A stretch of 64,000 nucleotides of DNA from Candidatus Veblenbacteria bacterium (GTDB lineage Bacteria > Patescibacteriota > Patescibacteriia > Veblenbacterales > UBA10138), in assembly GCA_037439965.1 (NCBI GenBank), contig JBBIVB010000001.1, forward strand, positions 31,895 through 95,894, written 5' to 3'. The first letter of the stretch is position 1. Each line of letters begins with the position of its first letter. Position numbers and translations under genes: made by a program. The notes under the pieces are model-generated. The model was given only the letters and a program-made list of their open reading frames with translations. It did no database searches and was not told where the DNA came from. Positions 1 through 18,355 of the stretch are shown here, one piece after another.

Positions 1-317
1 TTGGTAAATTTATTCGTTCCTGGAGTCTTGATGAACTTCCTCAATTTTTTAATGTACTCTTAGGGCAAATGAGTTTAGTAGGCCCAAGGCCTCACGAACC
101 GCAAGAGGTGGCAAAATATCAAACTAATCATAAAAAAGTACTAAGCATTAAGCCCGGTATTACTGGATTGGCTCAAATTTCTGGTCGTTCTAGTTTAAGT
201 TTTATTGATGAGGTACGCCTGGATAGCTTTTATATAGAGAACTGGTCTTTATTTTATGATTTATTTATCTTGCTTAAAACAATAGTAGTAATTTTTCAAA
301 GGAAATATGCAGCATGA
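1..317 (+). CDS. Bacterial sugar transferase (polyprenyl-phosphate hexose-1-phosphate transferase, WbaP/PglC-like), C-terminal part; 5' end lies outside the window
   Basis: Frame 3 from position 3 translates KFIRSWSLDELPQFFNVLLGQMSLVGPRPH..., the canonical C-terminal catalytic motif of the bacterial sugar transferase family. The reading frame is open to the window edge. Confidence 0.8.
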   Translation, partial: GKFIRSWSLDELPQFFNVLLGQMSLVGPRPHEPQEVAKYQTNHKKVLSIKPGITGLAQISGRSSLSFIDEVRLDSFYIENWSLFYDLFILLKTIVVIFQRKYAA

Positions 318-1414
318 ATAAAAATTTATCTATTGCTTTAGCTCATGATCATTTAAACCAGTTTGGCGGCGCTGAACAGGTTTTAGCACAATTGCATAAA
401 TTATTTCCCCGAGCTCCTGTTTATACCGTGATGTTTGATGCAAAAGTAGTAGGTAAGGGGTTTGCTAATTGGGATATCCGTACTTCTTTTTTGCAAAGAG
501 TGCCAGCTGTTACCAGATGGTTTAAATGGTATCTAACTTTTATTCCGGCGGCGGTAGAGCACTTAGATTTATCTAACTATAATTTAGTTATTAGTTCCTG
601 TTCTGCTTTAATTAAAGGTTTGGTGTTAAAACCAGATGCTACCCATATTTGTTATTGCCATACACCTACCAGATACCTTTGGAGCGATACCCATCAATAT
701 ACAGAGGATTTAGAGCAGCCGAAAATCATTAAAAAAATCTTGCCAATGATTTTAACTAAACTACGACAATGGGATCAATTAGCAGCGCAAAGAGTTGATT
801 ATTTTATTGCTAATTCTGAATTTGTAGCGCGTCGTATAAATAAATACTATCATCGGCAGGCTGAAGTGATTTATCCGCCGGTTAATTTAGCTAACTTCAA
901 ACCTAGCTCTAAAATAGAAGATTATTATCTAGTAGTATCAAGGTTACGACCTTATAAACGGGTAGATCTAGCTATTAAAGCATTTAATAAATTAGGTATT
1001 CCATTAAAAATAATTGGTACAGGTCAACAATATCAAACCTTAAAAAAAATAGCTAAAGGTAATATAGAATTCTTAGGCCAAGTATCAGAAGCAGAAAAAG
1101 CGCATTATCTAAGTCATGCTCGAGCTTTAATTTTTCCACAAGAAGAAGATTTTGGTATTACAGCGGTAGAATCTTTAGCCTCTGGCAGACCAGTTATAGC
1201 TTATGCTGCTGGAGGCGTTTTAGAGATTTTAAAAGATGGTATTAGTGGCAAATTTTTTACTGAACAAACCTGGCAAGCTTTAGCCGACACTGTAATTAGA
1301 TTTAAGCCAGAAAATTTTGAGACAGACCGAATACTGTCTGAATCGTTAAAATTTGATAGTAAGGTTTTCTCTGATAAATTAAACACTTTTATCAATAAAG
1401 TTACAGCTAAATGA
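314..1414 (+). CDS. Glycosyltransferase family 4 (GT-B, retaining)
   Basis: C-terminal EEDFGITAVESLASGRPVIAYAAGG motif typical of GT4 enzymes. ATGA overlap with the next gene suggests translational coupling. Confidence 0.75.
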   Translation: MNKNLSIALAHDHLNQFGGAEQVLAQLHKLFPRAPVYTVMFDAKVVGKGFANWDIRTSFLQRVPAVTRWFKWYLTFIPAAVEHLDLSNYNLVISSCSALIKGLVLKPDATHICYCHTPTRYLWSDTHQYTEDLEQPKIIKKILPMILTKLRQWDQLAAQRVDYFIANSEFVARRINKYYHRQAEVIYPPVNLANFKPSSKIEDYYLVVSRLRPYKRVDLAIKAFNKLGIPLKIIGTGQQYQTLKKIAKGNIEFLGQVSEAEKAHYLSHARALIFPQEEDFGITAVESLASGRPVIAYAAGGVLEILKDGISGKFFTEQTWQALADTVIRFKPENFETDRILSESLKFDSKVFSDKLNTFINKVTAK

Positions 1415-2559
1415 AGTTAGGAGTTGATATTAGATGTTTACAAGACCGCCATTGGACCGGTGTAGCTTTGTATACCAGAAATATTTTAAAACAATTTACG
1501 GTCATACTAGGACAAGATTTAGAAATTGGCTTATTTGCCAATGCTTTAAAGCTTACTTGGGGTGGTAAAGTTGATGATTTAGGTTTAATAGCTTGCTCGC
1601 ATTTGCCCAATAGCTTGTTAAATTCTTTATGGCAAGTTAATTTAGGCCCCGCATTAGACACTATTTTAACAAAACATAATTTTAAACCACGAATCGTCTG
1701 GCTGCCTAATTTACATTTTTTCAAATTATCCCCACAGGTTATCAAGGCGGTTACTATTCACGATTTATCTTTTATCCATTTTCCACAATTTTTTTCCTGG
1801 AAAAAACGAGTTTGGTATCTAAATTACATTACTAAACAGGTTAGGTATGGCTTAAAAGATTTTTCTTTAATCTTGACAATATCACAACACACTGCTGATG
1901 ATTTTAGTAACCTACGTCCAGATTTAGCTAAAAGGGTGGTAGCAATTAAGCTTGGAGTAAACAAAGAATTTTTTATTTCTCAAAACCCAACACAAATACA
2001 AGCAGTTAAAGCTAAATTTAATCTACCAGATAATTATTTATTAACCGTAGGCACATTAGAGCCCAGAAAAAATCATTTATTGTTACTTAAAGTATTTGAA
2101 GAATTATGCCGGCAGGACAACTCTTTATCTTTGGTTATAGCTGGTGTTCGCGGTTGGCAATGGAAACCTATTATAAATTTCTGGCAAAAAATGGTATACA
2201 AAGACAAAGTGCATTTTATAGGCTATGTGGCGCACAGCGATAAGGCCGCTTTGTATGCCGGAGCGCAGCTGTTTCTTTATCCTTCTTTTTATGAAGGTTT
2301 TGGTTTTCCTCCACTTGAAGCTATGGCGTGCGGCGTTCCCACCTTAGTTTCCTCAGTGAGTTCGTTACCAGAAGTGGTACAAGATGGTGCAGTTCTTCTT
2401 GATCCTTGGATTCCAGATGAATGGTTGTATACTATAAGATATATCTTGGATAATAAAGACTACGCTAGTAAATTAGCTAAACGCGGCCAAGATGTAGCCC
2501 GGGGTTACAGTTGGGCTGATACAGCCAATAAAATTTTAACTGAATTCAATAAATTATGA
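1411..2559 (+). CDS. Glycosyltransferase family 4
   Basis: FYEGFGFPPLEAMACGVPTLVSSVSSLPEVV motif (E-x7-E region of GT4). ATGA overlaps with both neighbouring genes. Confidence 0.75.
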   Translation: MKLGVDIRCLQDRHWTGVALYTRNILKQFTVILGQDLEIGLFANALKLTWGGKVDDLGLIACSHLPNSLLNSLWQVNLGPALDTILTKHNFKPRIVWLPNLHFFKLSPQVIKAVTIHDLSFIHFPQFFSWKKRVWYLNYITKQVRYGLKDFSLILTISQHTADDFSNLRPDLAKRVVAIKLGVNKEFFISQNPTQIQAVKAKFNLPDNYLLTVGTLEPRKNHLLLLKVFEELCRQDNSLSLVIAGVRGWQWKPIINFWQKMVYKDKVHFIGYVAHSDKAALYAGAQLFLYPSFYEGFGFPPLEAMACGVPTLVSSVSSLPEVVQDGAVLLDPWIPDEWLYTIRYILDNKDYASKLAKRGQDVARGYSWADTANKILTEFNKL

Positions 2560-3656
2560 AAATAGCTTTTGATGCTAGATTATTTGGTATAAGGCATAGG
2601 GGTATCGGCATGTATACCGAGAATCTATTAATTACTTTAAAAGAGAAGGATCAAACTAATAATTATTATATTCTAGGAGGAGAGAATGCTAATTACCTAG
2701 CGTCAGCTAATTGGCAATTAATTAAAGCTGATTGTAGAGTTTATAGTTGTCGGGAGCAAATATTAATACCTAAGTTAATAAATAAATTAAAGCCAGATTT
2801 AGTTCATTATCCGCATTTTAATGTACCGCTTTGTAGTCAGCGACCGTTTATAGTTACAGTGCATGATTTAATACTTCATCAATTTCCTAATGAACGGGCT
2901 TCTACTTTACCTAAGTGGCTATATTGTTTTAAATTAGCTATCTATCATCTGGTAGTAAAGCGCGCGCTTACTAAAGCTCTAGCTATTATTACTGTTAGCC
3001 AGAGTGTTAAAGAGGATATTATTAAGTATTATCCACAAGTAGCTTCTAAGATTAAGGTAATTTATGAAGCTCCGGCTTTATTACCTAAAGATATACCTAA
3101 AGATCGAAAGGAACGTTTAATTAAAGAGGATTATTGGCTTTATGTTGGTGCTGCTTATCCTCATAAAAACTTAAGTTTATTGCTAAGAGCTTTTACTAAA
3201 GCCAAAAAGGGTAATAGGCAATTGGTATTGGTTGGTAGACAAGATTATTTTTATCAACAGTTAAAATTATTAGCTAAAAAAGAAAAGTTAACCAAAGGAG
3301 TTATATTTTGGGGTGAAGTCAGTCAAGTTAGTCTAGCTAATTTATATGCTAACGCGGCAGGTTACTTAAGCCCTTCTTTAGCAGAAGGATTTGATTTAAG
3401 TGCTTTGCAAGCAGCTTTTTTTCATAAGCCTATTTTAGCCAGTAATATAAAAGTTCATCAAGAAATCCTTAAAGAGGCCGCGATATTTTTTGAACCACAA
3501 AACTTAGAAGACTTAACTTGCAAATTAGAGCAATTTTATCAATCACCTCCAAAATTTAATTATCAAAAACTTGAGCAAGACTTAGCAGCTAGTTTTAATT
3601 GGCAAAAAACAGCCCAAGAAACTTTGTGTTTATACCAAAACTTGAAATTGTTATAA
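2556..3656 (+). CDS. Glycosyltransferase family 4-like
   Basis: LAEGFDLSALQAAFFHKPILASN motif, N-terminal GT4-like fold, same operon frame as the preceding GTs. Confidence 0.65.
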   Translation: MKIAFDARLFGIRHRGIGMYTENLLITLKEKDQTNNYYILGGENANYLASANWQLIKADCRVYSCREQILIPKLINKLKPDLVHYPHFNVPLCSQRPFIVTVHDLILHQFPNERASTLPKWLYCFKLAIYHLVVKRALTKALAIITVSQSVKEDIIKYYPQVASKIKVIYEAPALLPKDIPKDRKERLIKEDYWLYVGAAYPHKNLSLLLRAFTKAKKGNRQLVLVGRQDYFYQQLKLLAKKEKLTKGVIFWGEVSQVSLANLYANAAGYLSPSLAEGFDLSALQAAFFHKPILASNIKVHQEILKEAAIFFEPQNLEDLTCKLEQFYQSPPKFNYQKLEQDLAASFNWQKTAQETLCLYQNLKLL

Positions 3657-3674: not shown

Positions 3675-6215
3675 TTGATGACTAAAGCTAAAATAGAAAT
3701 TAATCCCAAACCAAAAGCCGGCAACCAATCAAAAACTTGGCAATTCAAATTAAACAGCAAAAAAAAGCTTTTGGCTGTAGAAGGTTTTAGTAATGTAATT
3801 TCCCGTCATGTAATTAATTTGCGTCAACCTAAAGTTAGTAAAACACCGCAATCATCAGAAACTACAGCTTCTTGCCTTACTGCTACTTTTAATAAACAGA
3901 CTATAAAGTTTACTAAGGCAGATGTTAAACCGGTTAACTTTTTAAATGCCCAAAGTAGCTTATGGTATGTACCGTGGGTAAAATTAGAAAAGAAATTTCC
4001 TTTGCTTAGAGGTTTAACTATTCTTTTTTTAGCTGAGGTAGTTTATTGGTTTATTTATCACTGCTTAAAGTTTTTTGTTATTATCAGCTGGAAGTTATAT
4101 TTACAAACCAGCCACATTGTTAAAAGTATTTTAGAGGATTTAGCTTATTTTTTTGAATTATTAAGTTGCTCTTTAAAATTTTTAATTACACCCTGGTCTG
4201 CTTTGAAACCACGGCCTCAAAAGATTAATACTCATTTTATAGTGCCGCAACTTAAACAAATTACTGTTTTTATATTTATTCTATTTTTAATATTAGCGCC
4301 ACTTAAAATTTTATCTTTATGGAGATCACTTACCAGTGTCAAAGGATATTTAACCTCCTATGCTAACGCGGCTTTAGGAACTTTTACTAGCGCTAGTGAA
4401 AATTTATTTTCCGGAGAATACCTTAAAGCCCGCGAAAATTTTATAACGGCGGCTAAATATGTTAATGAGGCGGTTACCAATTTAGATAAAGCGACTGAAG
4501 AAATAGGTGTGCTATTAAACAATCCTTTAATTTTAGGGGCCAAGCTTAATTCCACAGAAAAATTATTAGCTGCTGCTAAAGAATTAAGTGAGGTAGGAAT
4601 TATTTTTAGCCATACTTTTGATGTTTTATCAGAAGCATCAAACAAACAATTAAATGATATAGAATTAGCTAATAAGACCTTAGTTTTAAAACAAGCTTTA
4701 TTAGATACCCAACTAAAAATATCGCAAAGTTACTTATTATTGCAAGAAGTTAATCCTAAAGAATTCCCTAGTGACTTAGCTCAGCAAGTTACTGAACTTA
4801 AATTATTATTAGCTGATTTACAGAAATTTATCCGTAATTTTTCAGCTGTACCAGAACTGATTAGTGTCTTAGTTCCTCCAGTAGGTCAAAAAACCTACTT
4901 ATTAGTATTTCAAAATTATTCAGAATTAAGACCTAGCGGCGGATTTATTGGCAGCTTAGCTTTTATTTATTTACAAGATGGTAAAATCACTAAGATTCAG
5001 ATTCCTGGCGGAGGACCTTATGATTTACAAGGACAGTTGCCGTATAAACTTATACCCCCAAAACCCTTGACTCTAATTAATCCACTTTGGCAATTACAGG
5101 ACAGTAATTGGTATTTCGATTTTCCTAAATCAGCACAAAATATCGCTTGGTTTGTTGAACAAAGTTGGCAAATTAAATTAGATGGGGTAATCAGCCTTAA
5201 CCCCGATGTAATAATTGAATTGTTAAAATTCACCGGCCCTATTGAGTTTACTAAATATAATAAGATAATTACTGCCGAAAATTTTATTCGCGAAACACAA
5301 GAAGCGGTAGATTTAGAATATGAAAAAACCCAAAATAGACCTAAAAAATTTATTGCTGATTTAGCGCCTCTCATCTTAGATCGTTTGCTTAAAAATAATT
5401 CAAAAAATATTTTTACTATTTATCAAACACTAAGCGAGATGTTAAAGAAAAAAAGTATTCAGCTTTATGTTACCGATACAACTGCAGAACAATTAATTAC
5501 CGATTTAGGCTGGGATGGGAGAGTGGCTCAATACGGCGGTGATTATTTAGCTATCGTACGTACTAACATTGGCGGCGGCAAAACTGATTTAGTCATAGAA
5601 GAAAAAGTTAACCATCAACTAACCATTAATCCAGATGGCCGATTAATAGCCACAATTAATTTTACCAGACATCATTTAGGCGATCCTTTTGATATATTTT
5701 ATCAGCGGCAAAATGTTTCCTGGCTTAAATTTTATGTACCCCAGAATAGTATTTTATTAGAAGCTAAAGGCTTTGATACTATAGAGGCCAATCGTTTTAA
5801 AACTGTGCCAGCAGAAGCTTTTGAGCACAATCTTTTTTCTGACGATCAAATAATAGAGCAGGTTAATAATTCTTCTACCACCATCGGGCAAGAATATGGC
5901 AAAACTTATTTTGCTAACTGGTTAACTTTAAAACCTGGCGAAAGTAAAACTGTTACGCTTACTTATCAACTACCATTTACTTTAGCAGACTTAACAGATG
6001 ATAATAAATTTTATAATTATCAAATATTTTTTCAAAGACAATCAGGAGTGAAGCCTCTATCTTTTACTACTACTGTTAATAAACCAGTTGATTTAATAGT
6101 TAAATGGCAAGAAGCATCTGGAAATTTACAGGTAATGGGAAAGCCGTTTCACTGGCAGGGTGATTGGCAAACCGATAGCTATTATGCTCTATTATTAGAG
6201 AAAATTAAGGAGTGA
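3675..6215 (+). CDS. Large membrane-anchored DUF4012-like protein of unknown function
   Basis: 846 aa ORF with hydrophobic helices near residues 110-220. Central ELRPSGGFIGSLAFIYLQDG segment matches the conserved RPxGGFIGS core I recall for DUF4012 proteins, which often sit in cell-wall polysaccharide clusters. Confidence 0.5.
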   Translation: MMTKAKIEINPKPKAGNQSKTWQFKLNSKKKLLAVEGFSNVISRHVINLRQPKVSKTPQSSETTASCLTATFNKQTIKFTKADVKPVNFLNAQSSLWYVPWVKLEKKFPLLRGLTILFLAEVVYWFIYHCLKFFVIISWKLYLQTSHIVKSILEDLAYFFELLSCSLKFLITPWSALKPRPQKINTHFIVPQLKQITVFIFILFLILAPLKILSLWRSLTSVKGYLTSYANAALGTFTSASENLFSGEYLKARENFITAAKYVNEAVTNLDKATEEIGVLLNNPLILGAKLNSTEKLLAAAKELSEVGIIFSHTFDVLSEASNKQLNDIELANKTLVLKQALLDTQLKISQSYLLLQEVNPKEFPSDLAQQVTELKLLLADLQKFIRNFSAVPELISVLVPPVGQKTYLLVFQNYSELRPSGGFIGSLAFIYLQDGKITKIQIPGGGPYDLQGQLPYKLIPPKPLTLINPLWQLQDSNWYFDFPKSAQNIAWFVEQSWQIKLDGVISLNPDVIIELLKFTGPIEFTKYNKIITAENFIRETQEAVDLEYEKTQNRPKKFIADLAPLILDRLLKNNSKNIFTIYQTLSEMLKKKSIQLYVTDTTAEQLITDLGWDGRVAQYGGDYLAIVRTNIGGGKTDLVIEEKVNHQLTINPDGRLIATINFTRHHLGDPFDIFYQRQNVSWLKFYVPQNSILLEAKGFDTIEANRFKTVPAEAFEHNLFSDDQIIEQVNNSSTTIGQEYGKTYFANWLTLKPGESKTVTLTYQLPFTLADLTDDNKFYNYQIFFQRQSGVKPLSFTTTVNKPVDLIVKWQEASGNLQVMGKPFHWQGDWQTDSYYALLLEKIKE

Positions 6216-6269
6216 AGTAATAAAGTCTTGACAAAACGTTACTTTGGGTGTAGTCTAATAAGTTGTCAT

Positions 6270-12892: not shown

Positions 12893-13810
12893 ATGTTATT
12901 ATTATCTTTTTATCGCATTTTAAAATTCGGACTGCAAAATTTTGTCCGTAATTTTTGGTTGTCCTTAGTAACTATCACTATTATTACTTTAAGTTTGTTG
13001 TCGGTTAGTATTTTAGGATTGATAACAATTATCTCACAAAAAGCGCTGGATAACTTAGAGCAAAAAATAGATATTGGCGTATATTTAAAACCAAAATTAA
13101 CCGAAAGGCAAATTTTAGATTTAAAAAGCGAAGTAGAATCATTGCCCGGTGTTAAAGCTGTAGCTTATATTACAGCTGATGAAGCTTTGCAAAAATTTAA
13201 AGAAAAATACCAAAACAATGAACAAATAGGGGAGGCGCTGATACTTTTAGGTGTAAATCCTTTGGGTGCCAGTTTGCGCATTAAAGCCTTTTCTGATAAA
13301 GATTACCAAACTGTGCTAGATACTTTAGAAAACGAACGCTACCAAGATTTAATCCAAGAAGCTAGATTTGAGGATTATCGCCAAGTGATTAGTGGCCTTA
13401 ATGAACTAACCTTAAAGGTTAAACGTGCAGGGATATTTACTAGTTTGATTTTCTTGATTATTGCACTATTAGTTGTCTTTAACACCATTCGTATTAATAT
13501 TTATACCCAACGCGAAGAAATTGAAATAAAACGCTTAGTAGGCGCTACTAATGCTTTTATTCGCGGCCCCTTTACTATAGAGAGTATTTTGTATGCTTTA
13601 CTTGCCACTCTTTTAACCGCGTTGATTTTCTGTATTTCCTTGCGCTGGATAGACCCTTATGTCAGTACACTTTTTAACGGTTCTGACTTTAGCCTAACAA
13701 CTTATTTTCAACAATATGGCTTAATATTTTTCGGCACGCAGTTTTTAAGCGCCACTATTTTAAATATCCTAGCTTCTTATGTTGCTATGCGGCGGTATTT
13801 AAAAGTATAG
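12893..13810 (+). CDS. ftsX: Cell division permease FtsX
   Basis: Directly downstream of ftsE, 305 aa, four TM segments with a large periplasmic loop, and the KRLVGATNAFIRGPF motif. Confidence 0.75.
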   Translation: MLLLSFYRILKFGLQNFVRNFWLSLVTITIITLSLLSVSILGLITIISQKALDNLEQKIDIGVYLKPKLTERQILDLKSEVESLPGVKAVAYITADEALQKFKEKYQNNEQIGEALILLGVNPLGASLRIKAFSDKDYQTVLDTLENERYQDLIQEARFEDYRQVISGLNELTLKVKRAGIFTSLIFLIIALLVVFNTIRINIYTQREEIEIKRLVGATNAFIRGPFTIESILYALLATLLTALIFCISLRWIDPYVSTLFNGSDFSLTTYFQQYGLIFFGTQFLSATILNILASYVAMRRYLKV

Positions 13811-14038
13811 GTAAATCTTTATAAATAAAATTCCCAGGCTGATTATAAACCAGGAAATTTTGATTTTCATTTTATTTCAAAAAAGCTACATAACAAAGGA
13901 TAATCAAAACTACGGTTATAATTATTATCATCTTAAACTCCTAATTGTTAATTTTTCGATTTTTATTATTTTTAAAATATTATGATATCTTACTTACTAG
14001 AGTCAAGTTAAACTTTTTGTTATTATTTATTTAGCCAC

Positions 14039-14067
14039 CTTGACGTGAAGTCTAAATTAAATTATCA
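14039..14067 (+). promoter_or_regulatory. Sigma70-like promoter for tRNA-Gln (TTGACG-17-TATCAT)
   Basis: -35 TTGACG at 14039-14044, a 17-nt spacer, and -10 TATCAT at 14062-14067, placed 17 nt before the tRNA 5' end. Confidence 0.35.
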
Positions 14068-14084
14068 TAAGCACGTTATTTTGG

Positions 14085-14158
14085 TGGGGGATCGTCTAAA
14101 GGTAGGACACCACCCTTTGGAGGTGGGTATCGTGGTTCGAGTCCACGTCCCCCAGCCA
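14085..14158 (+). tRNA. tRNA-Gln (anticodon TTG), CCA encoded
   Basis: Acceptor UGGGGGA/UCCCCCA with a U1:A72 pair and G73 discriminator (known GlnRS identity elements). Anticodon stem CCACC/GGTGG with loop CTTTGGA, T-arm GGTTCGAGTCC, 3' GCCA. Confidence 0.8.
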
Positions 14159-14170
14159 ATTAGTAAAGTT

Positions 14171-14260
14171 TCGATTTTTCGCCTCGCCCGAATGTTTCGC
14201 ATTTTGCGGGATCAGAAATCAGCGTCCGGATTTTCGCGGAAAAAAGTTCGGATTTTGTTC
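14171..14260 (+). repeat. Array of four direct repeats of a 13-14 nt motif (TCG-N-ATTTT-SCGS) immediately 3' of tRNA-Gln
   Basis: tcgatttttcgcc (14171), tcgcattttgcgg (14197), ccggattttcgcgg (14226) and ttcggattttgttc (14247), spaced 22-29 bp apart. Confidence 0.5.
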
Positions 14261-14292
14261 AAGAGACACAGCCTTTTACTGTCTAGGGCTAT

Positions 14293-14509
14293 AATAAAAG
14301 ATAAGGAGGAAAAAATTTTAGTTTGCCGCAACAAGGGCAAGGATTATTATTTTTTCCATGGCGGTCATATAGAATTTGGTGAATCCTCAAAGCAAGCTTT
14401 ACAACGCGAACTTAGGGAGGAGTTGGGTTTAACTGCGGATAGCTTTACCTTTTTTATCAAACACAGGTTCGCGAAATTACTACTAAAAGTTTGGAAATCT
14501 GATATATAA
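14293..14509 (+). pseudogene. Nudix hydrolase remnant (Nudix box only)
   Basis: Translates KILVCRNKGKDYYFFHGGHIEFGESSKQALQRELREELGL, the GX5EX7REUXEEXGU Nudix box. No in-frame canonical start follows the AGGAGG upstream. Only about 27 aa follow the box. The annotated upstream ORF portion overlaps tRNA-Gln. Confidence 0.45.
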
Positions 14510-14748
14510 TAAATAAAAAATATGACAGAAAATAATGAAACTAAACCAAAATGTTGCCGATGTGACCAAATATGGTAAATTCTACCAAAAATATTTTCAT
14601 CTGCTTTAAAGCGCTGGTAATCTCAAGTGTTACATACTAACCATTATTTTATTAATTTATATTTTATTAATTTAGTTTATTACTATAATGTAGCTTATTT
14701 TAAATTAAGCAAGGTTGATTTTTGTATAGGGAGACGTAAAATAGGGGT

Positions 14749-15006
14749 ATGAACGAGACCGAAATTTCCAAAGAAATAGAATCCATCAAGGAGCGTAATA
14801 GAAAAGTGGAGTTAGATAAAGCTTGGGAATTATCATGGACTAGACGGTTGTTAATTCTTATTGGCACCTATATTCTGGCAGGAGTATGGCTTGAGATAAT
14901 TAAAGCTAATAATCCGTGGCAAAATGCCTTTGTACCAACATTTGGGTATTTATTATCAACCTTTACTATACCAATTGTTAAAAAGTGGTGGGTAAAAAAT
15001 AGATAG
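14749..15006 (+). CDS. Small hypothetical membrane protein (two predicted TM helices)
   Basis: 85 aa ORF with a charged N-terminus followed by two hydrophobic stretches. No family recognised. Confidence 0.4.
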   Translation: MNETEISKEIESIKERNRKVELDKAWELSWTRRLLILIGTYILAGVWLEIIKANNPWQNAFVPTFGYLLSTFTIPIVKKWWVKNR

Positions 15007-15237
15007 AATTATTTTTACTAAAAGCGGATAGAGGAACCCGCCAAAGGCGAATATTTCGGGGCGCAACGTGCCAAGCAGTGCATATATTTTATGTACTAAT
15101 TTTAACTTGACTTTTATTTATAATGATATAAAGTTATGATAGCTGAAATAAACAAAAAATCGTAAATTTGGCTAAAAACCTAGTTTTTTGTACTTTAATA
15201 ATTCATTAAAACCTTAACAAACTCCTTGGAGGATATA

Positions 15238-16704
15238 ATGAAAAATATATTCTTTGTAATTGTTTTGCTGTTTTTATTAAACTCGCTGGTCCTAGCCCAA
15301 GATCCGGCTGTTAATTACATTCAGGCCTTTCCGGAAAAAAGTATGGTAAAAACAGGACAGGAATTTGATGTACTGGTTCGTATTAATACCGGTAAGCTAT
15401 CTGTATATTCCGCCAGCTTTATCCTGGATTATGGCGATACTTATAATCTGGATGTCGTCAGTGTTTCAGGGGGCGATTTCCTGGGCAGTGATACATTATT
15501 TGCAGCTATTATCAAAGAAGCAAACAGTGATGTTCATATTTCTATCTCTCAAAAAGGTGAGGCTTCAGGTAATGTTGGCATCGGCACTTTGGCTATAGTA
15601 AGATTCCGCGCCAATAACGCCGCTAATATGGATATACGAACAGTTAATCTTTATTGCTTTGAGTTAGACATACGTGATCCCAATACTAAAGTTCTTAATA
15701 TTAGTAATACTTCTAGCCAACTGACTATTGCCGAGACTTTTGTCTGGCCAGGTGATGCTGACAACAACGGTATGGTTAACGAAGCAGATATTCTGCAAAT
15801 TGGTTTGCATTTTAACCAAACCGGTAATGCACGACCTAATGCTAGTTTTGATTGGAAAGCTCAACCAATGTCGTTTTGGAATGATACTACAGCGATGTAT
15901 GTTGACGCTACAGGGGACGGCAGAATCAAAATAAATGATATGCCAGCAATAGGATTTAATTACGGATTAACACACTTTAGTATAATGCCTATAACTTCCC
16001 CTTTGATACTACTAGACAAAATCGCGGCGGATAACAAGCTTTATGCTATTGCTAATCGTGTTGGTAATGAGGTTACCGTTTCAGTAATTGCTAAGGCGGC
16101 GCAAGATTTATTCGGCATCTCCTTTAAGATATTTTATAATCCTGCTGAGCTTTCCTTTATTGACGCTTATAATGGCGAATATATGCCCGGCGGTATCTTT
16201 TTTAAACATGTGGACACTAATCAAGGTTTACTAGCTTCTGCCGTAACTTTGACCAGAGGTGAAGATGGGGTAACAGATACTAAAAGCGTAATGATAGCGC
16301 GATTTAATATGCTAGACAATGATCTGAACTTACATTTCCAGGATGTTGTAGCGTATAACACTGCGGGTAATCGTATAGAATTTGAAGTTACTGATTTATC
16401 CGAAGTATTGGGGGTAAAAGATGAGATAGCGCCGACTGAATATTCATTGGCACAAAATTATCCCAATCCGTTTAATCCCACTACAACAATCAGGTATACA
16501 TTACCACGGGCTTCAACAGTAACGTTGATCATCTATAATGTTCTTGGTCAGAAAGTAATTTCTTTGGTAAATAGCCACCAAAATCCTGGAACTTACACAG
16601 TTCCGGTTAATGCTTCAGAACTATCTGATGGTATATATTTCTATACTTTGAGTGCCGGAGCCGGAACATTCACACAAACAAAAACAATGATGTTGGTTAA
16701 GTAA
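15238..16704 (+). CDS. Secreted cohesin/dockerin-like protein with a type IX secretion system C-terminal sorting domain (Por_Secre_tail-type CTD)
   Basis: GGAGG RBS 6 nt upstream of the ATG at 15238. Signal peptide MKNIFFVIVLLFLLNSLVLAQDP. Dockerin-like DADNNGMVNEADIL and DATGDGRIKINDM repeats. C-terminus LAQNYPNPFNPTTTIRYTLP...LIIYNVLGQKV...SDGIYFYTL matches the T9SS CTD consensus. Codon usage is visibly richer in CTG/CCG/GGC/GCC than in flanking genes. Confidence 0.7.
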   Translation: MKNIFFVIVLLFLLNSLVLAQDPAVNYIQAFPEKSMVKTGQEFDVLVRINTGKLSVYSASFILDYGDTYNLDVVSVSGGDFLGSDTLFAAIIKEANSDVHISISQKGEASGNVGIGTLAIVRFRANNAANMDIRTVNLYCFELDIRDPNTKVLNISNTSSQLTIAETFVWPGDADNNGMVNEADILQIGLHFNQTGNARPNASFDWKAQPMSFWNDTTAMYVDATGDGRIKINDMPAIGFNYGLTHFSIMPITSPLILLDKIAADNKLYAIANRVGNEVTVSVIAKAAQDLFGISFKIFYNPAELSFIDAYNGEYMPGGIFFKHVDTNQGLLASAVTLTRGEDGVTDTKSVMIARFNMLDNDLNLHFQDVVAYNTAGNRIEFEVTDLSEVLGVKDEIAPTEYSLAQNYPNPFNPTTTIRYTLPRASTVTLIIYNVLGQKVISLVNSHQNPGTYTVPVNASELSDGIYFYTLSAGAGTFTQTKTMMLVK

Positions 16705-16728
16705 CAAGTGCTTAACATAAATTTCAGG

Positions 16729-16771
16729 CACCTTAATACAATTCTAATACAATTGTATTAGGGTGTTTTTG
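16729..16771 (+). terminator. Intrinsic terminator (15-bp stem, 7-nt loop, TTTTTG) after the T9SS-CTD gene
   Basis: CACCTTAATACAATT-ctaatac-AATTGTATTAGGGTG followed by TTTTTG. Confidence 0.55.
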
Positions 16772-16839
16772 TAAACTTTAAGTAGTTTCCTTCGTTTAAT
16801 TAATTGACTTAAATTACAAAAAACTATATAATTATCTCT

Positions 16840-17790
16840 ATGCTAAAATTTAATAAAACAATTATTATAGTTATCGTGTTAATAGTTGGTATCAGTTTAG
16901 CTGATTATTTTATTTTTAACAGCAAAATCGCTGAATGGGAAAAAAAATTAAACCAAAGTATTAAAGAAAACCAAACTCTGGCTAATCAAATAGCTTCATT
17001 AACCGAAGCTTATAATAAACTACTAGCTACCTCTACGCAAACTACTAACACTAATAACACTAATAAAGTTAATAAAGAAAAAACACAGGAGCAGCTTTTA
17101 ACCGAAGCTGTTAGTAAAGTGGCACCGGCAGTAGTTTCTATTGTTATTACCAAAGATGTACCACAACTTGAAGTAGTATATATTAATCCTTTTGGTGATG
17201 ACCCATTTTTTAAAGATTTTAATATCCGTGTGCCGCAATATAGACAAAAAGGCACTGCTGAGCAAAAAGTAGGAGCTGGCACTGGTTTTATTGTTAAATC
17301 TTCTGGCTATATTATTACCAATCGCCATGTGGTTAATGATCAAAATGCGCACTATACTGTACTGTTAACTGACGGCAGCCAAAAATCAGCTCAAGTTATA
17401 TATCGTGATAATGATCTTGATTTAGCTATTTTAAAAATTGAGGGCAATAATTATTCTACTGTGACTTTTGGCAATTCCGACACCTTAAAACTTGGTCAGT
17501 CAGTTTTTGCTATAGGCAACGCATTGGGAGAATATAACAACTCGGTTTCGGTAGGTATTATTTCTGGTTTAAATCGTGACATTACTGCTTTTGGTGGCAG
17601 TAAATCAGAAAAATTACAAGGAGTTATTCAAACTGATGCTGCTATAAACCCTGGAAATTCTGGCGGACCATTAGTTAATTTAAACAGTGAAGTGATTGGT
17701 ATTAATGTGGCTATGGCTTCAGGAGAAAACATTGGTTTTGCTATTCCGATTAATGCTGTTAAAGCCATTATTAACTCTCAAATAAAATAA
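16840..17790 (+). CDS. Trypsin-like serine protease, S1C (HtrA/DegP-like) catalytic domain without PDZ, membrane anchored
   Basis: N-terminal TM helix, catalytic triad contexts ITNRHVV, DLDLAILKI and GNSGGPL, 316 aa. Confidence 0.75.
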   Translation: MLKFNKTIIIVIVLIVGISLADYFIFNSKIAEWEKKLNQSIKENQTLANQIASLTEAYNKLLATSTQTTNTNNTNKVNKEKTQEQLLTEAVSKVAPAVVSIVITKDVPQLEVVYINPFGDDPFFKDFNIRVPQYRQKGTAEQKVGAGTGFIVKSSGYIITNRHVVNDQNAHYTVLLTDGSQKSAQVIYRDNDLDLAILKIEGNNYSTVTFGNSDTLKLGQSVFAIGNALGEYNNSVSVGIISGLNRDITAFGGSKSEKLQGVIQTDAAINPGNSGGPLVNLNSEVIGINVAMASGENIGFAIPINAVKAIINSQIK

Positions 17791-18136
17791 CCATCTAAAG
17801 CACCTTGTATAAAAACTCCGCTGGAGATTATTACCCAGGGAGTGAATATTTGATTATAATTTTTCATTAATTTAATAAACCAGCACAAAACAATTATTAT
17901 CAGATAAAACACATACCAAAAGCAAGCACAAAAATTCTTAGCAATCAAGTCGTGTAATAATACTGGCTGAATAAATAGTATTTCAAATAATAAATTACCA
18001 AGTCAAATTAAAAGGTAAGCTGCCAAAGCCAAATCAACAATTCATTAATTTTTATTATTTTTCCTTATTCATTGTTTGTTTTATAATTAATTTTGTTTAG
18101 CTATCTTTAGTAATTAATATTTATCTAGTCAAAAAA

Positions 18137-18296: not shown

Positions 18297-18355
18297 TCTT
18301 ACTTGGATAAATTTTATTGCAGTGCTTAATTTTGTTATTTGGTAAATAAATTAAT

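Follow-up and report, generated by a model that had tools for sequence, protein, structure and literature searches.

A motif cluster behind a Veblenbacteria tRNA-Gln gene as the probable remnant of one end of a Patescibacteria repeat element

Four similar short motifs lie within 90 bp directly behind the 3' end of a tRNA-Gln gene in a 64,000-nucleotide (nt), AT-rich (34% GC) stretch of Candidatus Veblenbacteria DNA (the window), and the locus raises the question of what such a cluster is. The first-pass annotation proposed arm-type binding sites of an integrase or excisionase, iterons of a former integrated element, or a regulatory array for the islet of genes downstream. Comparison with loci of other genomes (identified here by numbers such as L002) indicates that the cluster is probably a lone copy of the outer ~100 nt of a ~190-nt GC-rich Patescibacteria repeat, altered by mutation and in part deleted; the observation was real but over-read, and the element family to which the repeat belongs appears to be undescribed.

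All four motifs are present at the positions at which they were reported. Copy 1 (tcgatttttcgcc, 14171-14183) is in register with the others as GTTTCG-ATTTT (GTTTCGATTTT) from 14168, spanning 14168-14178, and copies 2 (tcgcattttgcgg, 14197-14209), 3 (ccggattttcgcgg, 14226-14239), and 4 (ttcggattttgttc, 14247-14260) are in register as GTTTCGCATTTT from 14194, GTCCGGATTTT from 14224, and GTTCGGATTTT from 14246, respectively. Their clustering exceeds chance expectation. The pattern GTYY?CGS?ATTTT has six matches on the two strands of the window (128 kb), four of which are in the cluster, and four non-overlapping copies of an 11-mer with no more than two mismatches in 96 nt were obtained in 1 of 2,000 dinucleotide shuffles of the region (four copies in 13 to 18 of 2,000 under looser settings). 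Among 1,332 overlapping 96-bp stretches tested across the window, only 4 have four copies, three of these, all except the cluster, being A/T low-complexity sequence. The fourfold recurrence is thus genuine, but the copies are unevenly spaced (26, 30, and 22 nt) and differ by an indel, and homologous elements elsewhere contain only zero to two instances of the motif, so that the pattern is peculiar to a decayed window copy and does not represent a conserved array. The surroundings also differ from the "otherwise AT-rich spacer" first described, as the motif region is a GC-richer patch (41-47%) between spacers with 17-24% GC.

A profile built from seven intact copies of the element (~190 positions) has one nhmmer match in the 64-kb window, at 14177-14272 (profile positions 91-181, E = 9.9e-10), and blastn aligns 14211-14272 with L018 (62 nt, 90% identity, E = 4e-19) and the window with L003 (70 nt, E = 4e-8). 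The outer-region feature ...ATCAnAAnTCAGCGTCCGGATTTTCnnnnAAAAAAGTTCGGATTTnGT...ACACnGCC of the element is present, and similarity extends to ~14279, where ACACAGCCTTTTAC is found opposite ACACCGCCAAGTTTTAC of L027 (terminus placed by eye). The outer half of the element corresponds to 14177-14279 on the forward strand and is in a right-end orientation, its outer terminus pointing to 14279. Of the invariant core hairpin (GGGCGGGCAAAAA - TTCCTTCCCCCCAACCCCCTTCC - TTTTTGCCCGCCC), the window has only a degenerate sequence resembling the 3' arm (ATTTTTCGCCTCGCCCGA), and the window copy is therefore a relic and not an intact member. It is also solitary: the single profile match means that the 64-kb window has no inverted partner copy, and tblastn finds no homologue in the window of the XRE-type helix-turn-helix (HTH) gene that accompanies the element elsewhere. 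No family of GC-rich hairpins resembling repetitive extragenic palindromes was found within the window.

The four motifs derive from different parts of this outer half, as seen in an alignment of family members (A3). Copy 1 comes from ATTTTTCGCCTCGCCCGAAT (14174-14193, forward strand), in which ATTTTTCGCCTCGCCCGAATG is opposite the T-run and 3' arm of the main hairpin (CTTTTTGCCCGCCCGAGCG). Copy 2 lies in a small hairpin, GTTTCGCATTTTGCGGGA (14194-14211, forward strand), at the place that the variable hairpin occupies in other copies (TCCGCCAGTTGGCGGA in L003), with TTTCGCATTTTGCGGG opposite TCCGCCAGTTGGCGG. Copies 3 and 4 together form a subterminal unit, GTCCGGATTTT-CGCGGAAAAAA-GTTCGGATTTTG (14224-14257, forward strand), and GTCCGGATTTTCGCGGAAAAAAGTTCGGATTTTG is almost identical to GTCCGGATTTTCACGGAAAAAAGTTCGGATTTTG of L018. 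One subfamily of the element has two GTYCGGATTTT units ~22 nt apart in its outer region, and only copies 3 and 4 match a conserved feature of the parent element, namely these subterminal repeats. The fourfold look is a product of deletion in the window copy and mutation towards A/T, and not a designed array; the apparent repeats would be three successive hairpin remnants, each with a CG-rich half-stem beside a T-run. Two other origins were considered and rejected. A lineage-specific 22-bp duplication giving rise to copies 3 and 4, an idea suggested by the single copy in L015, is contradicted by the presence of both arms in L018 and L003, and L015 thus has a deletion. Decayed tRNA T-loops (GGTTCGAnTCC), a possibility raised by the tRNA fragments of relatives, were discarded because real homologues were found and there is no tRNA-like match at E<10.

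Intact copies of the element have an inner hairpin of variable sequence and the invariant 13-bp stem with its 23-nt C-rich loop, and a small variable hairpin is frequent. In L015 and L016 (FtsX 64% identical), CCAATTTGTAAAGTTTCGGTTTCCCGCCTCGC is located behind a tRNA-Gln 3' fragment and is followed by a 17-bp hairpin with a 23-nt C-rich loop and then by ...ATCAAAAGTCAGCGTTCGGATTTTGTTCAAGACGGACAG; this sequence matches both ends of the window region and contains a single copy of the copy-3/4 unit. The same hairpin is present in L003, with ATCAGAAATCAGCGTCAGAATTTTCGCACACAAAAATCTGAGG... after it, at a distance of 2.8 kb from the tRNA-Gln there. A search with the translation of a 58-amino-acid (aa) gene-caller open reading frame (ORF) across the L015 copy as bait retrieves 77 clusters of small "hypothetical proteins" (P0121-P0197, 44-102 aa), all of which contain KRGRAKIPSPQPPSFLPARA, the invariant hairpin in translation, and which carry the lineage labels Yanofsky-, Nomura-, Azam-, Harrison-, Gribaldo-, and Berkelbacteria. 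Many of these ORFs continue as ...QRPDFRGKKFGF(C/R)S..., which is exactly how copies 3 and 4 read in window frame 2 (QRPDFRGKKFGFCSRDTA), and several read ...QRPDFRGKKFGFCS..., identical to window frame 2; QRPDFRGKKFGF recurs in at least eight unrelated spurious ORFs. The peptide shared by at least 77 database "hypothetical proteins" is KIPSPQPPSFLPARA, and these entries are translations of this non-coding element and probably annotation artefacts.

Assemblies also break within the element, as would be expected of a sequence that recurs in a genome or community. Three independent breaks fall inside it: a Logan contig identical to the window (SRR11582156) ends at 14257, within copy 4, Logan contig SRR26275509 ends at L016 position 6806, and GCA_003487225.1 ends at L026 position 8208. 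Searches of plasmid and phage collections with an intact copy (blastn) gave no match, and neither did IMG/VR scans for the tRNA body, for the two conserved boxes, and for the invariant core; in a metagenome scan, the 3' end of tRNA-Gln plus trailer matched two unrelated loci only. The literature searched contains no description of the element, and a report on a serine recombinase and defence (PMC13552941) offers general context only.

At all four loci at which both sides are visible, two inverted copies of the element, 105-195 nt long, form a pair, with the left copy on the reverse strand and the right copy on the forward strand. The pairs are at 1080-1184 and 3025-3132 in L025, at 6065-6245 and 8028-8208 in L026 (180 of 181 nt identical, the right copy reaching the contig end), at 568-762 and 4013-4202 in L027 (195 nt), and at 111-242 and 3521-3648 in L028. 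Between the copies there are, in order, a conserved box (GCCCTTGCCCCAGCCCTCCCGTGCGCGGGCAAC), an AT-rich promoter region with inverted repeats of the GTAGTAT/ATACTAC type, a gene for a ~68-aa XRE-type HTH protein, and cargo. The cargo is varied and includes a Zn-ribbon, Mrr, and 430-aa protein combination, a 961-aa protein, 317-aa and 154-aa proteins, and a secreted 436-aa protein, with methylase and EVE-domain genes in L003; the HTH protein is the only homologue common to the cassettes. The L003 N6_N4 DNA methylase is itself split, with an N-terminal part (3193-3633, profile positions 1-86) within the cassette and a C-terminal part (5431-6000, profile positions 158-217) that starts at the outer end of the element, and with EVE-domain and other ORFs between them.

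None of the cassettes encodes a transposase or integrase. The L025 unit starts directly after tRNA-Arg(GCG), and the 3' 20-mer of this tRNA is repeated past the right repeat (positions 1036 and 3319), a direct repeat that marks site-specific integration into a tRNA gene. In L027, a serine recombinase gene (1-342, reverse strand; N-terminal domain PF00239, E = 1.7e-15) has its start ~225 nt to the outside of the left repeat and is directed away from the repeat, and L015 has a 66%-identical recombinase fragment (2003-2308, forward strand; E = 2.7e-17) preceded by a weak match to the outer part of the element. Such small serine recombinases outside the termini may be enzymes that act on the repeats; tblastn with the L027 protein finds no homologue in the window. 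There is no recognisable target-site duplication at the four pairs, and no autonomous copy was found for the family.

These features suggest that each inverted pair bounds a non-autonomous cassette, mobile or recombining, that would be moved or flipped in trans, perhaps by a small serine recombinase such as that just outside one L027 end. Movement may involve a trans-acting serine recombinase, inversion, or tRNA-directed integration. A broader proposal, of an undescribed phylum-wide family of cassettes with an XRE gene, interchangeable and in part restriction-type cargo, ~190-nt inverted repeats with an invariant hairpin, no transposase of their own, a small serine recombinase that moves, excises, or inverts them in trans, and a preference for sites beside tRNA genes, is advanced tentatively and with less assurance than the identity of the relic.

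The lineage of the window would once have had such a cassette beside tRNA-Gln. A first deletion could have removed all the sequence between the tRNA trailer and the middle of the end repeat, and a second, from the outer terminus, the start of the neighbouring NUDIX gene. The truncated NUDIX ORF (84 aa, 14255-14509, forward strand) has a TTG start at 14255 within motif copy 4 and matches Pfam PF00293 over positions 8-66 of 134, with the C-terminal half absent. Homology to the intact 140-aa NUDIX protein of L015 (7831-8253; BLASTP, 57% identity, E = 4e-27) begins at residue 9, equivalent to nt 14279, which coincides with the outer end of the relic. The ORF is very likely a pseudogene, retaining just the N-terminal half of the domain behind a makeshift TTG start. 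Methyltransferase and cupin genes lie between the relic and the intact NUDIX gene in L015, and the window would therefore have lost both, together with the NUDIX start, by deletion from the end of the element. The inner side of the relic faces the tRNA and its outer terminus faces the islet genes, which consequently lie outside the former cassette.

Several points weigh against the identification as a mobile-element end. The window copy has neither core, partner repeat, nor HTH gene, and its assignment depends on ~100 nt of similarity. No transposase, integrase, target-site duplication, or empty site was found for the family, the mobility of which is therefore an inference; a recombinase is beside the element at one locus only, plus one fragment, and in L003 the outer end runs directly into the C-terminal part of the DNA methylase. 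L015 also keeps the same tRNA-to-relic junction in spite of an FtsX identity of 64%, which is unlike a neutral old relic. Retention of this junction suggests selection (as in a terminator role), co-transfer with the 3' part of the tRNA, or gene conversion from intact copies elsewhere.

The first of these explanations corresponds to a present-day role that is compatible with descent from the element, an exapted terminator or 3'-processing region of tRNA-Gln formed by hairpins at 14183-14210 and 14224-14253 and the following UUUUGUU; it is possible, although we consider it doubtful. The copy-3/4 unit can form an 11-bp hairpin (14224-14253) of -12.3 kcal/mol in both the window and L018, just downstream of the tRNA gene and followed by UUUUGUU in the manner of Rho-independent terminators, and a terminator consensus scan matches 14224-14253 plus TTTTGTTC; no other such structure lies in the interval from the tRNA to the ORF that follows. 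L015 retains the junction and the outer part, with a different stem (CCGAGCG/CGUUCGG, -12.7 kcal/mol) before the same AUUUUG. Unlike typical Rho-independent terminators, however, the stem contains many A-U and G-U pairs and only three G-C pairs, would be inherited from a mobile-element end, and is not conserved in the other subfamily (b), in which the hairpin is weak or absent; the fold z-score is only -1.1 for the whole region and -1.7 for the local hairpin, and the closest relative, L002, has unrelated sequence behind its tRNA. L003 keeps the pairing with changed bases (CCGG/UCGG versus CAGA/UCUG, by eye). A universally conserved subterminal RNA hairpin was rejected on account of its absence from subfamily b. 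The copy-3/4 unit may act as a protein-binding direct-repeat pair or as a hairpin, and the surviving relic may now be only a hairpin and U-tract stop signal of the tRNA-Gln transcript.

Alternatively, the ~190-nt element could be a structured RNA gene or cis-regulatory RNA of which the window copy is a pseudogene, and this seems unlikely. The element is a GC-rich island in AT-rich genomes, its 23-nt loop is invariant, and the inner hairpin keeps its pairing while its sequence differs (GCCAAC/GTTGGC, GCCAGC/GCTGGC, GCCAGT/ACTGGC, and ATTTCGC/GCGAAAT), with changes on both sides in three predicted pairs. However, RNAalifold is uninformative for the main stem, which never varies and so provides no covariation evidence, and intact copies have no Rfam family match even at E<10 apart from chance microRNA hits (tRNA is the only match in the window region). 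The presence of both orientations around one cassette is better accommodated by DNA ends or single-stranded DNA hairpins.

The setting of the cluster bears on the integration-site interpretations. By its FtsX homologues, the window belongs to Patescibacteria. The gene order upstream is a SurA-like gene, tRNA-Thr and tRNA-Gly (both on the reverse strand), and ftsE and ftsX (12893-13810), and a 275-nt spacer between ftsX and tRNA-Gln contains a promoter-like site (TTGACG, 17 nt, TATCAT; 14040-14068, forward strand) with the same layout in relatives (by eye there). The tRNA-Gln(UUG) gene (14085-14158, forward strand; ARAGORN; Rfam tRNA, 58.6 bits) is intact with an encoded CCA and is followed by a trailer and junction, AATTAGTAAAGTTTCGAT (14159-14176, forward strand), which includes the start of motif copy 1; its first 5 nt are common to L002, and the entire junction is common to L015 and L016, where it is behind the tRNA-Gln 3' fragment. 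The order ftsX to tRNA-Gln is conserved among relatives. DNA homology to the nearest relative, L002 (FtsX 79% identical), continues through the tRNA up to 14163, 5 nt past the gene, and restarts at 17805 (L002 position 5234) and at 18346 (glycosyltransferase), which defines 14164-17804 (no strand assigned) as a window-specific segment of 3.6 kb where L002 has 186 nt. Besides the relic at its left edge and the NUDIX fragment, this segment contains a membrane ORF of 85 aa, a cohesin protein, and a trypsin-like protease, and glycosyltransferase, fmt, def, and priA genes are downstream of the islet ORFs. The 3' flank of tRNA-Gln is a hot spot in the window lineage. A Pfam scan of the islet ORFs identifies NUDIX, cohesin with a type IX secretion system (T9SS)-type tail, trypsin-like protease, and glycosyltransferase domains, and no tyrosine or serine integrase, excisionase, or replication-initiator (Rep) gene. 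No second match to the 25-nt 3' end of tRNA-Gln with up to three mismatches is present in the window, and an attR-type direct repeat is absent.

It is very unlikely that the motifs are four arm-type sites for an integrase or excisionase, or iterons, at the att site of an island in tRNA-Gln. The cluster does adjoin the 3' end of a tRNA gene where the 3.6-kb variable segment begins, tRNA-Gln fragments in relatives show that site-specific integration occurs there, and copies 3 and 4, as conserved direct repeats with a separation of two helical turns, could bind a recombinase. Against this, the four motifs are not equivalent, copies 1 and 2 being kept as motif copies in no homologue; the 11-nt core is interrupted by mismatches and an indel, and the uneven spacing does not suit arm sites or iterons, the latter being evenly spaced, near-identical repeats of 17-22 bp beside a replication initiator gene; the islet has no integrase, excisionase, or Rep gene, and the window has no tRNA 3' repeat; and the relic is turned the wrong way to bound the islet, which lies outside the element. 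Nine or more relatives have no clustering of the motif near tRNA-Gln, and the absence of the cluster downstream of tRNA-Gln in all relatives examined leaves a regulatory array for the downstream islet without support. The arm-site and iteron reading is largely refuted by homology mapping, and the initial suggestion of a former integrated element holds to the extent that the sequence left against the tRNA 3' end stems from an element that was mobile or integrated; the arm-type sites and iterons are not supported.

A decayed coding sequence, either a DNA methylase motif X as in L003 or a NUDIX 5' end, is marginally less probable still. The L003 stretch is in frame with, and partly inside, the Pfam N6_N4_Mtase match (profile positions 158-217, from ~nt 5431), and the NUDIX frame is open through the region, in which TTG at 14255 could start an ORF. 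However, indels among family copies are not multiples of three and the motif spacings do not keep to such multiples, the copies are intergenic and in both orientations, NUDIX homology starts only from 14279, and the start of the L003 Pfam match is a ragged alignment edge. Chance resemblance among short CG/T-run strings is the least probable explanation, since, although the motif was defined after the data were seen and looser shuffle settings are more permissive, the 1-in-2,000 result at k = 11, the standing of the cluster as the sole case in the window without low complexity, and independent homology to elements in other genomes, which already accounts for the sequence, all argue against it.

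With the cluster taken as the remnant of a cassette end, the family can be compared with known systems. Mobile insertion cassettes and related MITE-like non-autonomous elements (MITE, miniature inverted-repeat transposable element) include MIC231, which is derived from IS231 ends in Bacillus cereus. The Patescibacteria cassettes are similar in having passenger genes within terminal inverted repeats, no transposase inside, solitary or decayed ends, and assembly breaks, but differ in that the ends are ~105-195 nt with an invariant hairpin core, no parental insertion sequence or transposase is known, and no target-site duplication was found at the pairs; every cassette also has an XRE HTH gene, and one is additionally flanked by a direct repeat of a tRNA 3' end. 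The term mobile insertion cassette is used in PMC6199540 and PMC6542083. Elements that target tRNA genes, such as those with lambda-type tyrosine integrases and integrase-less cis-mobilisable elements, resemble the family in the location at tRNA 3' ends, the repeated 20-mer of L025, and the tRNA-Gln 3' fragments of relatives, and differ from it in that neither window nor cassettes have an integrase, the window has no tRNA repeat, and the motifs are not conserved arm sites.

Invertible segments with an adjacent small serine invertase are known from Mu (Gin and the G segment), P1 (Cin), and Salmonella (Hin), with crossover sites of 26-34 bp. They share with the cassettes inverted repeats that flank genes, a serine recombinase just outside a repeat and transcribed away from it (L027), and near identity of the repeats of one genome (180 of 181 nt in L026). 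The element is, however, ~190 nt long, the cassette has an internal promoter, both orientations were not observed, and a recombinase is present at one locus plus the L015 fragment. The pdif modules of Acinetobacter plasmids are recombinase-less gene modules between inverted 28-bp XerC/D sites that spread between replicons; the cassettes are likewise gene modules without their own recombinase between inverted flanking sites, but no dif-like sequence was recognised in the element.

The tRNA-Gln genes of relatives have further features of note. Broken tRNA-Gln-like pieces with GC-rich hairpin inserts are beside the intact tRNA-Gln in L015 (6219-6431, equivalent to L016 6567-6782) and L017 (5126-5665), and more such pieces are in L003 (2388-2586), L013 (6057-6212), L014 (1095-1230), and L009 (562-665). 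A direct repeat of a tRNA 3' end is present in L009, L013, L014, L015, and L017 for tRNA-Gln and in L025 for tRNA-Arg. In L015, L016, and L017, a 5' piece (acceptor, D arm, and 5' strand of the anticodon stem) is upstream and a 3' piece (T arm, acceptor, and CCA) downstream of the intact gene, a layout that resembles one tRNA nested in another. L015 and L017 share a conserved insert in the D-loop region, and the linkers flanking the inner tRNA of L015 are short and mutually complementary. These pieces may be integration scars or an unusual precursor architecture. In L017, an ORF for a GIY-YIG nuclease (5259-5504; PF01541, E = 6e-11) has the upstream 5' pieces of tRNA-Gln on one side and the intact gene on the other and is reminiscent of homing-endonuclease genes in tRNA clusters.

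Three other observations concern the window and the records with which it was compared. A 22-nt direct repeat (13943-13964 and 14158-14179; AATTGTTAATTTTTCGATTTTT and AATTAGTAAAGTTTCGATTTTT, 82% identical, with an exact 11-mer, TTTCGATTTTT) brackets tRNA-Gln and its promoter and may be a chance occurrence in AT-rich DNA. Within the variable segment, 15226-16704 codes for a cohesin domain together with a Por/T9SS C-terminal sorting domain (PF18962, E = 2e-10). Secretion tails of this type are normally associated with Bacteroidota, and the protein may have been acquired horizontally. Several of the metagenome-assembled genome records behind L002, L003, L007, L008, and L010 bear the title "uncultured Gammaproteobacteria bacterium"; at least L002 and L003 group with Patescibacteria by gene content and FtsX relatives, and these labels look wrong.

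For the locus itself the result is deflationary, in that the "array" is debris of one mobile-element end, and neither a regulatory nor an integrase-binding explanation is needed. For Patescibacteria, the ultra-small bacteria of the candidate phyla radiation that are known mostly from metagenomes, the ~190-nt end repeat is a readily recognised and highly conserved marker that flags cassettes of an XRE gene and cargo across many lineages, and it explains some assembly breaks and at least 77 spurious ORF clusters in their genomes. It thereby provides a handle for cataloguing the traffic of accessory and defence genes in these streamlined and mostly uncultured bacteria. If the cassettes do form a family mobilised in trans, they would represent a new vehicle by which accessory and defence genes travel in a group in which mobile elements are almost unknown.

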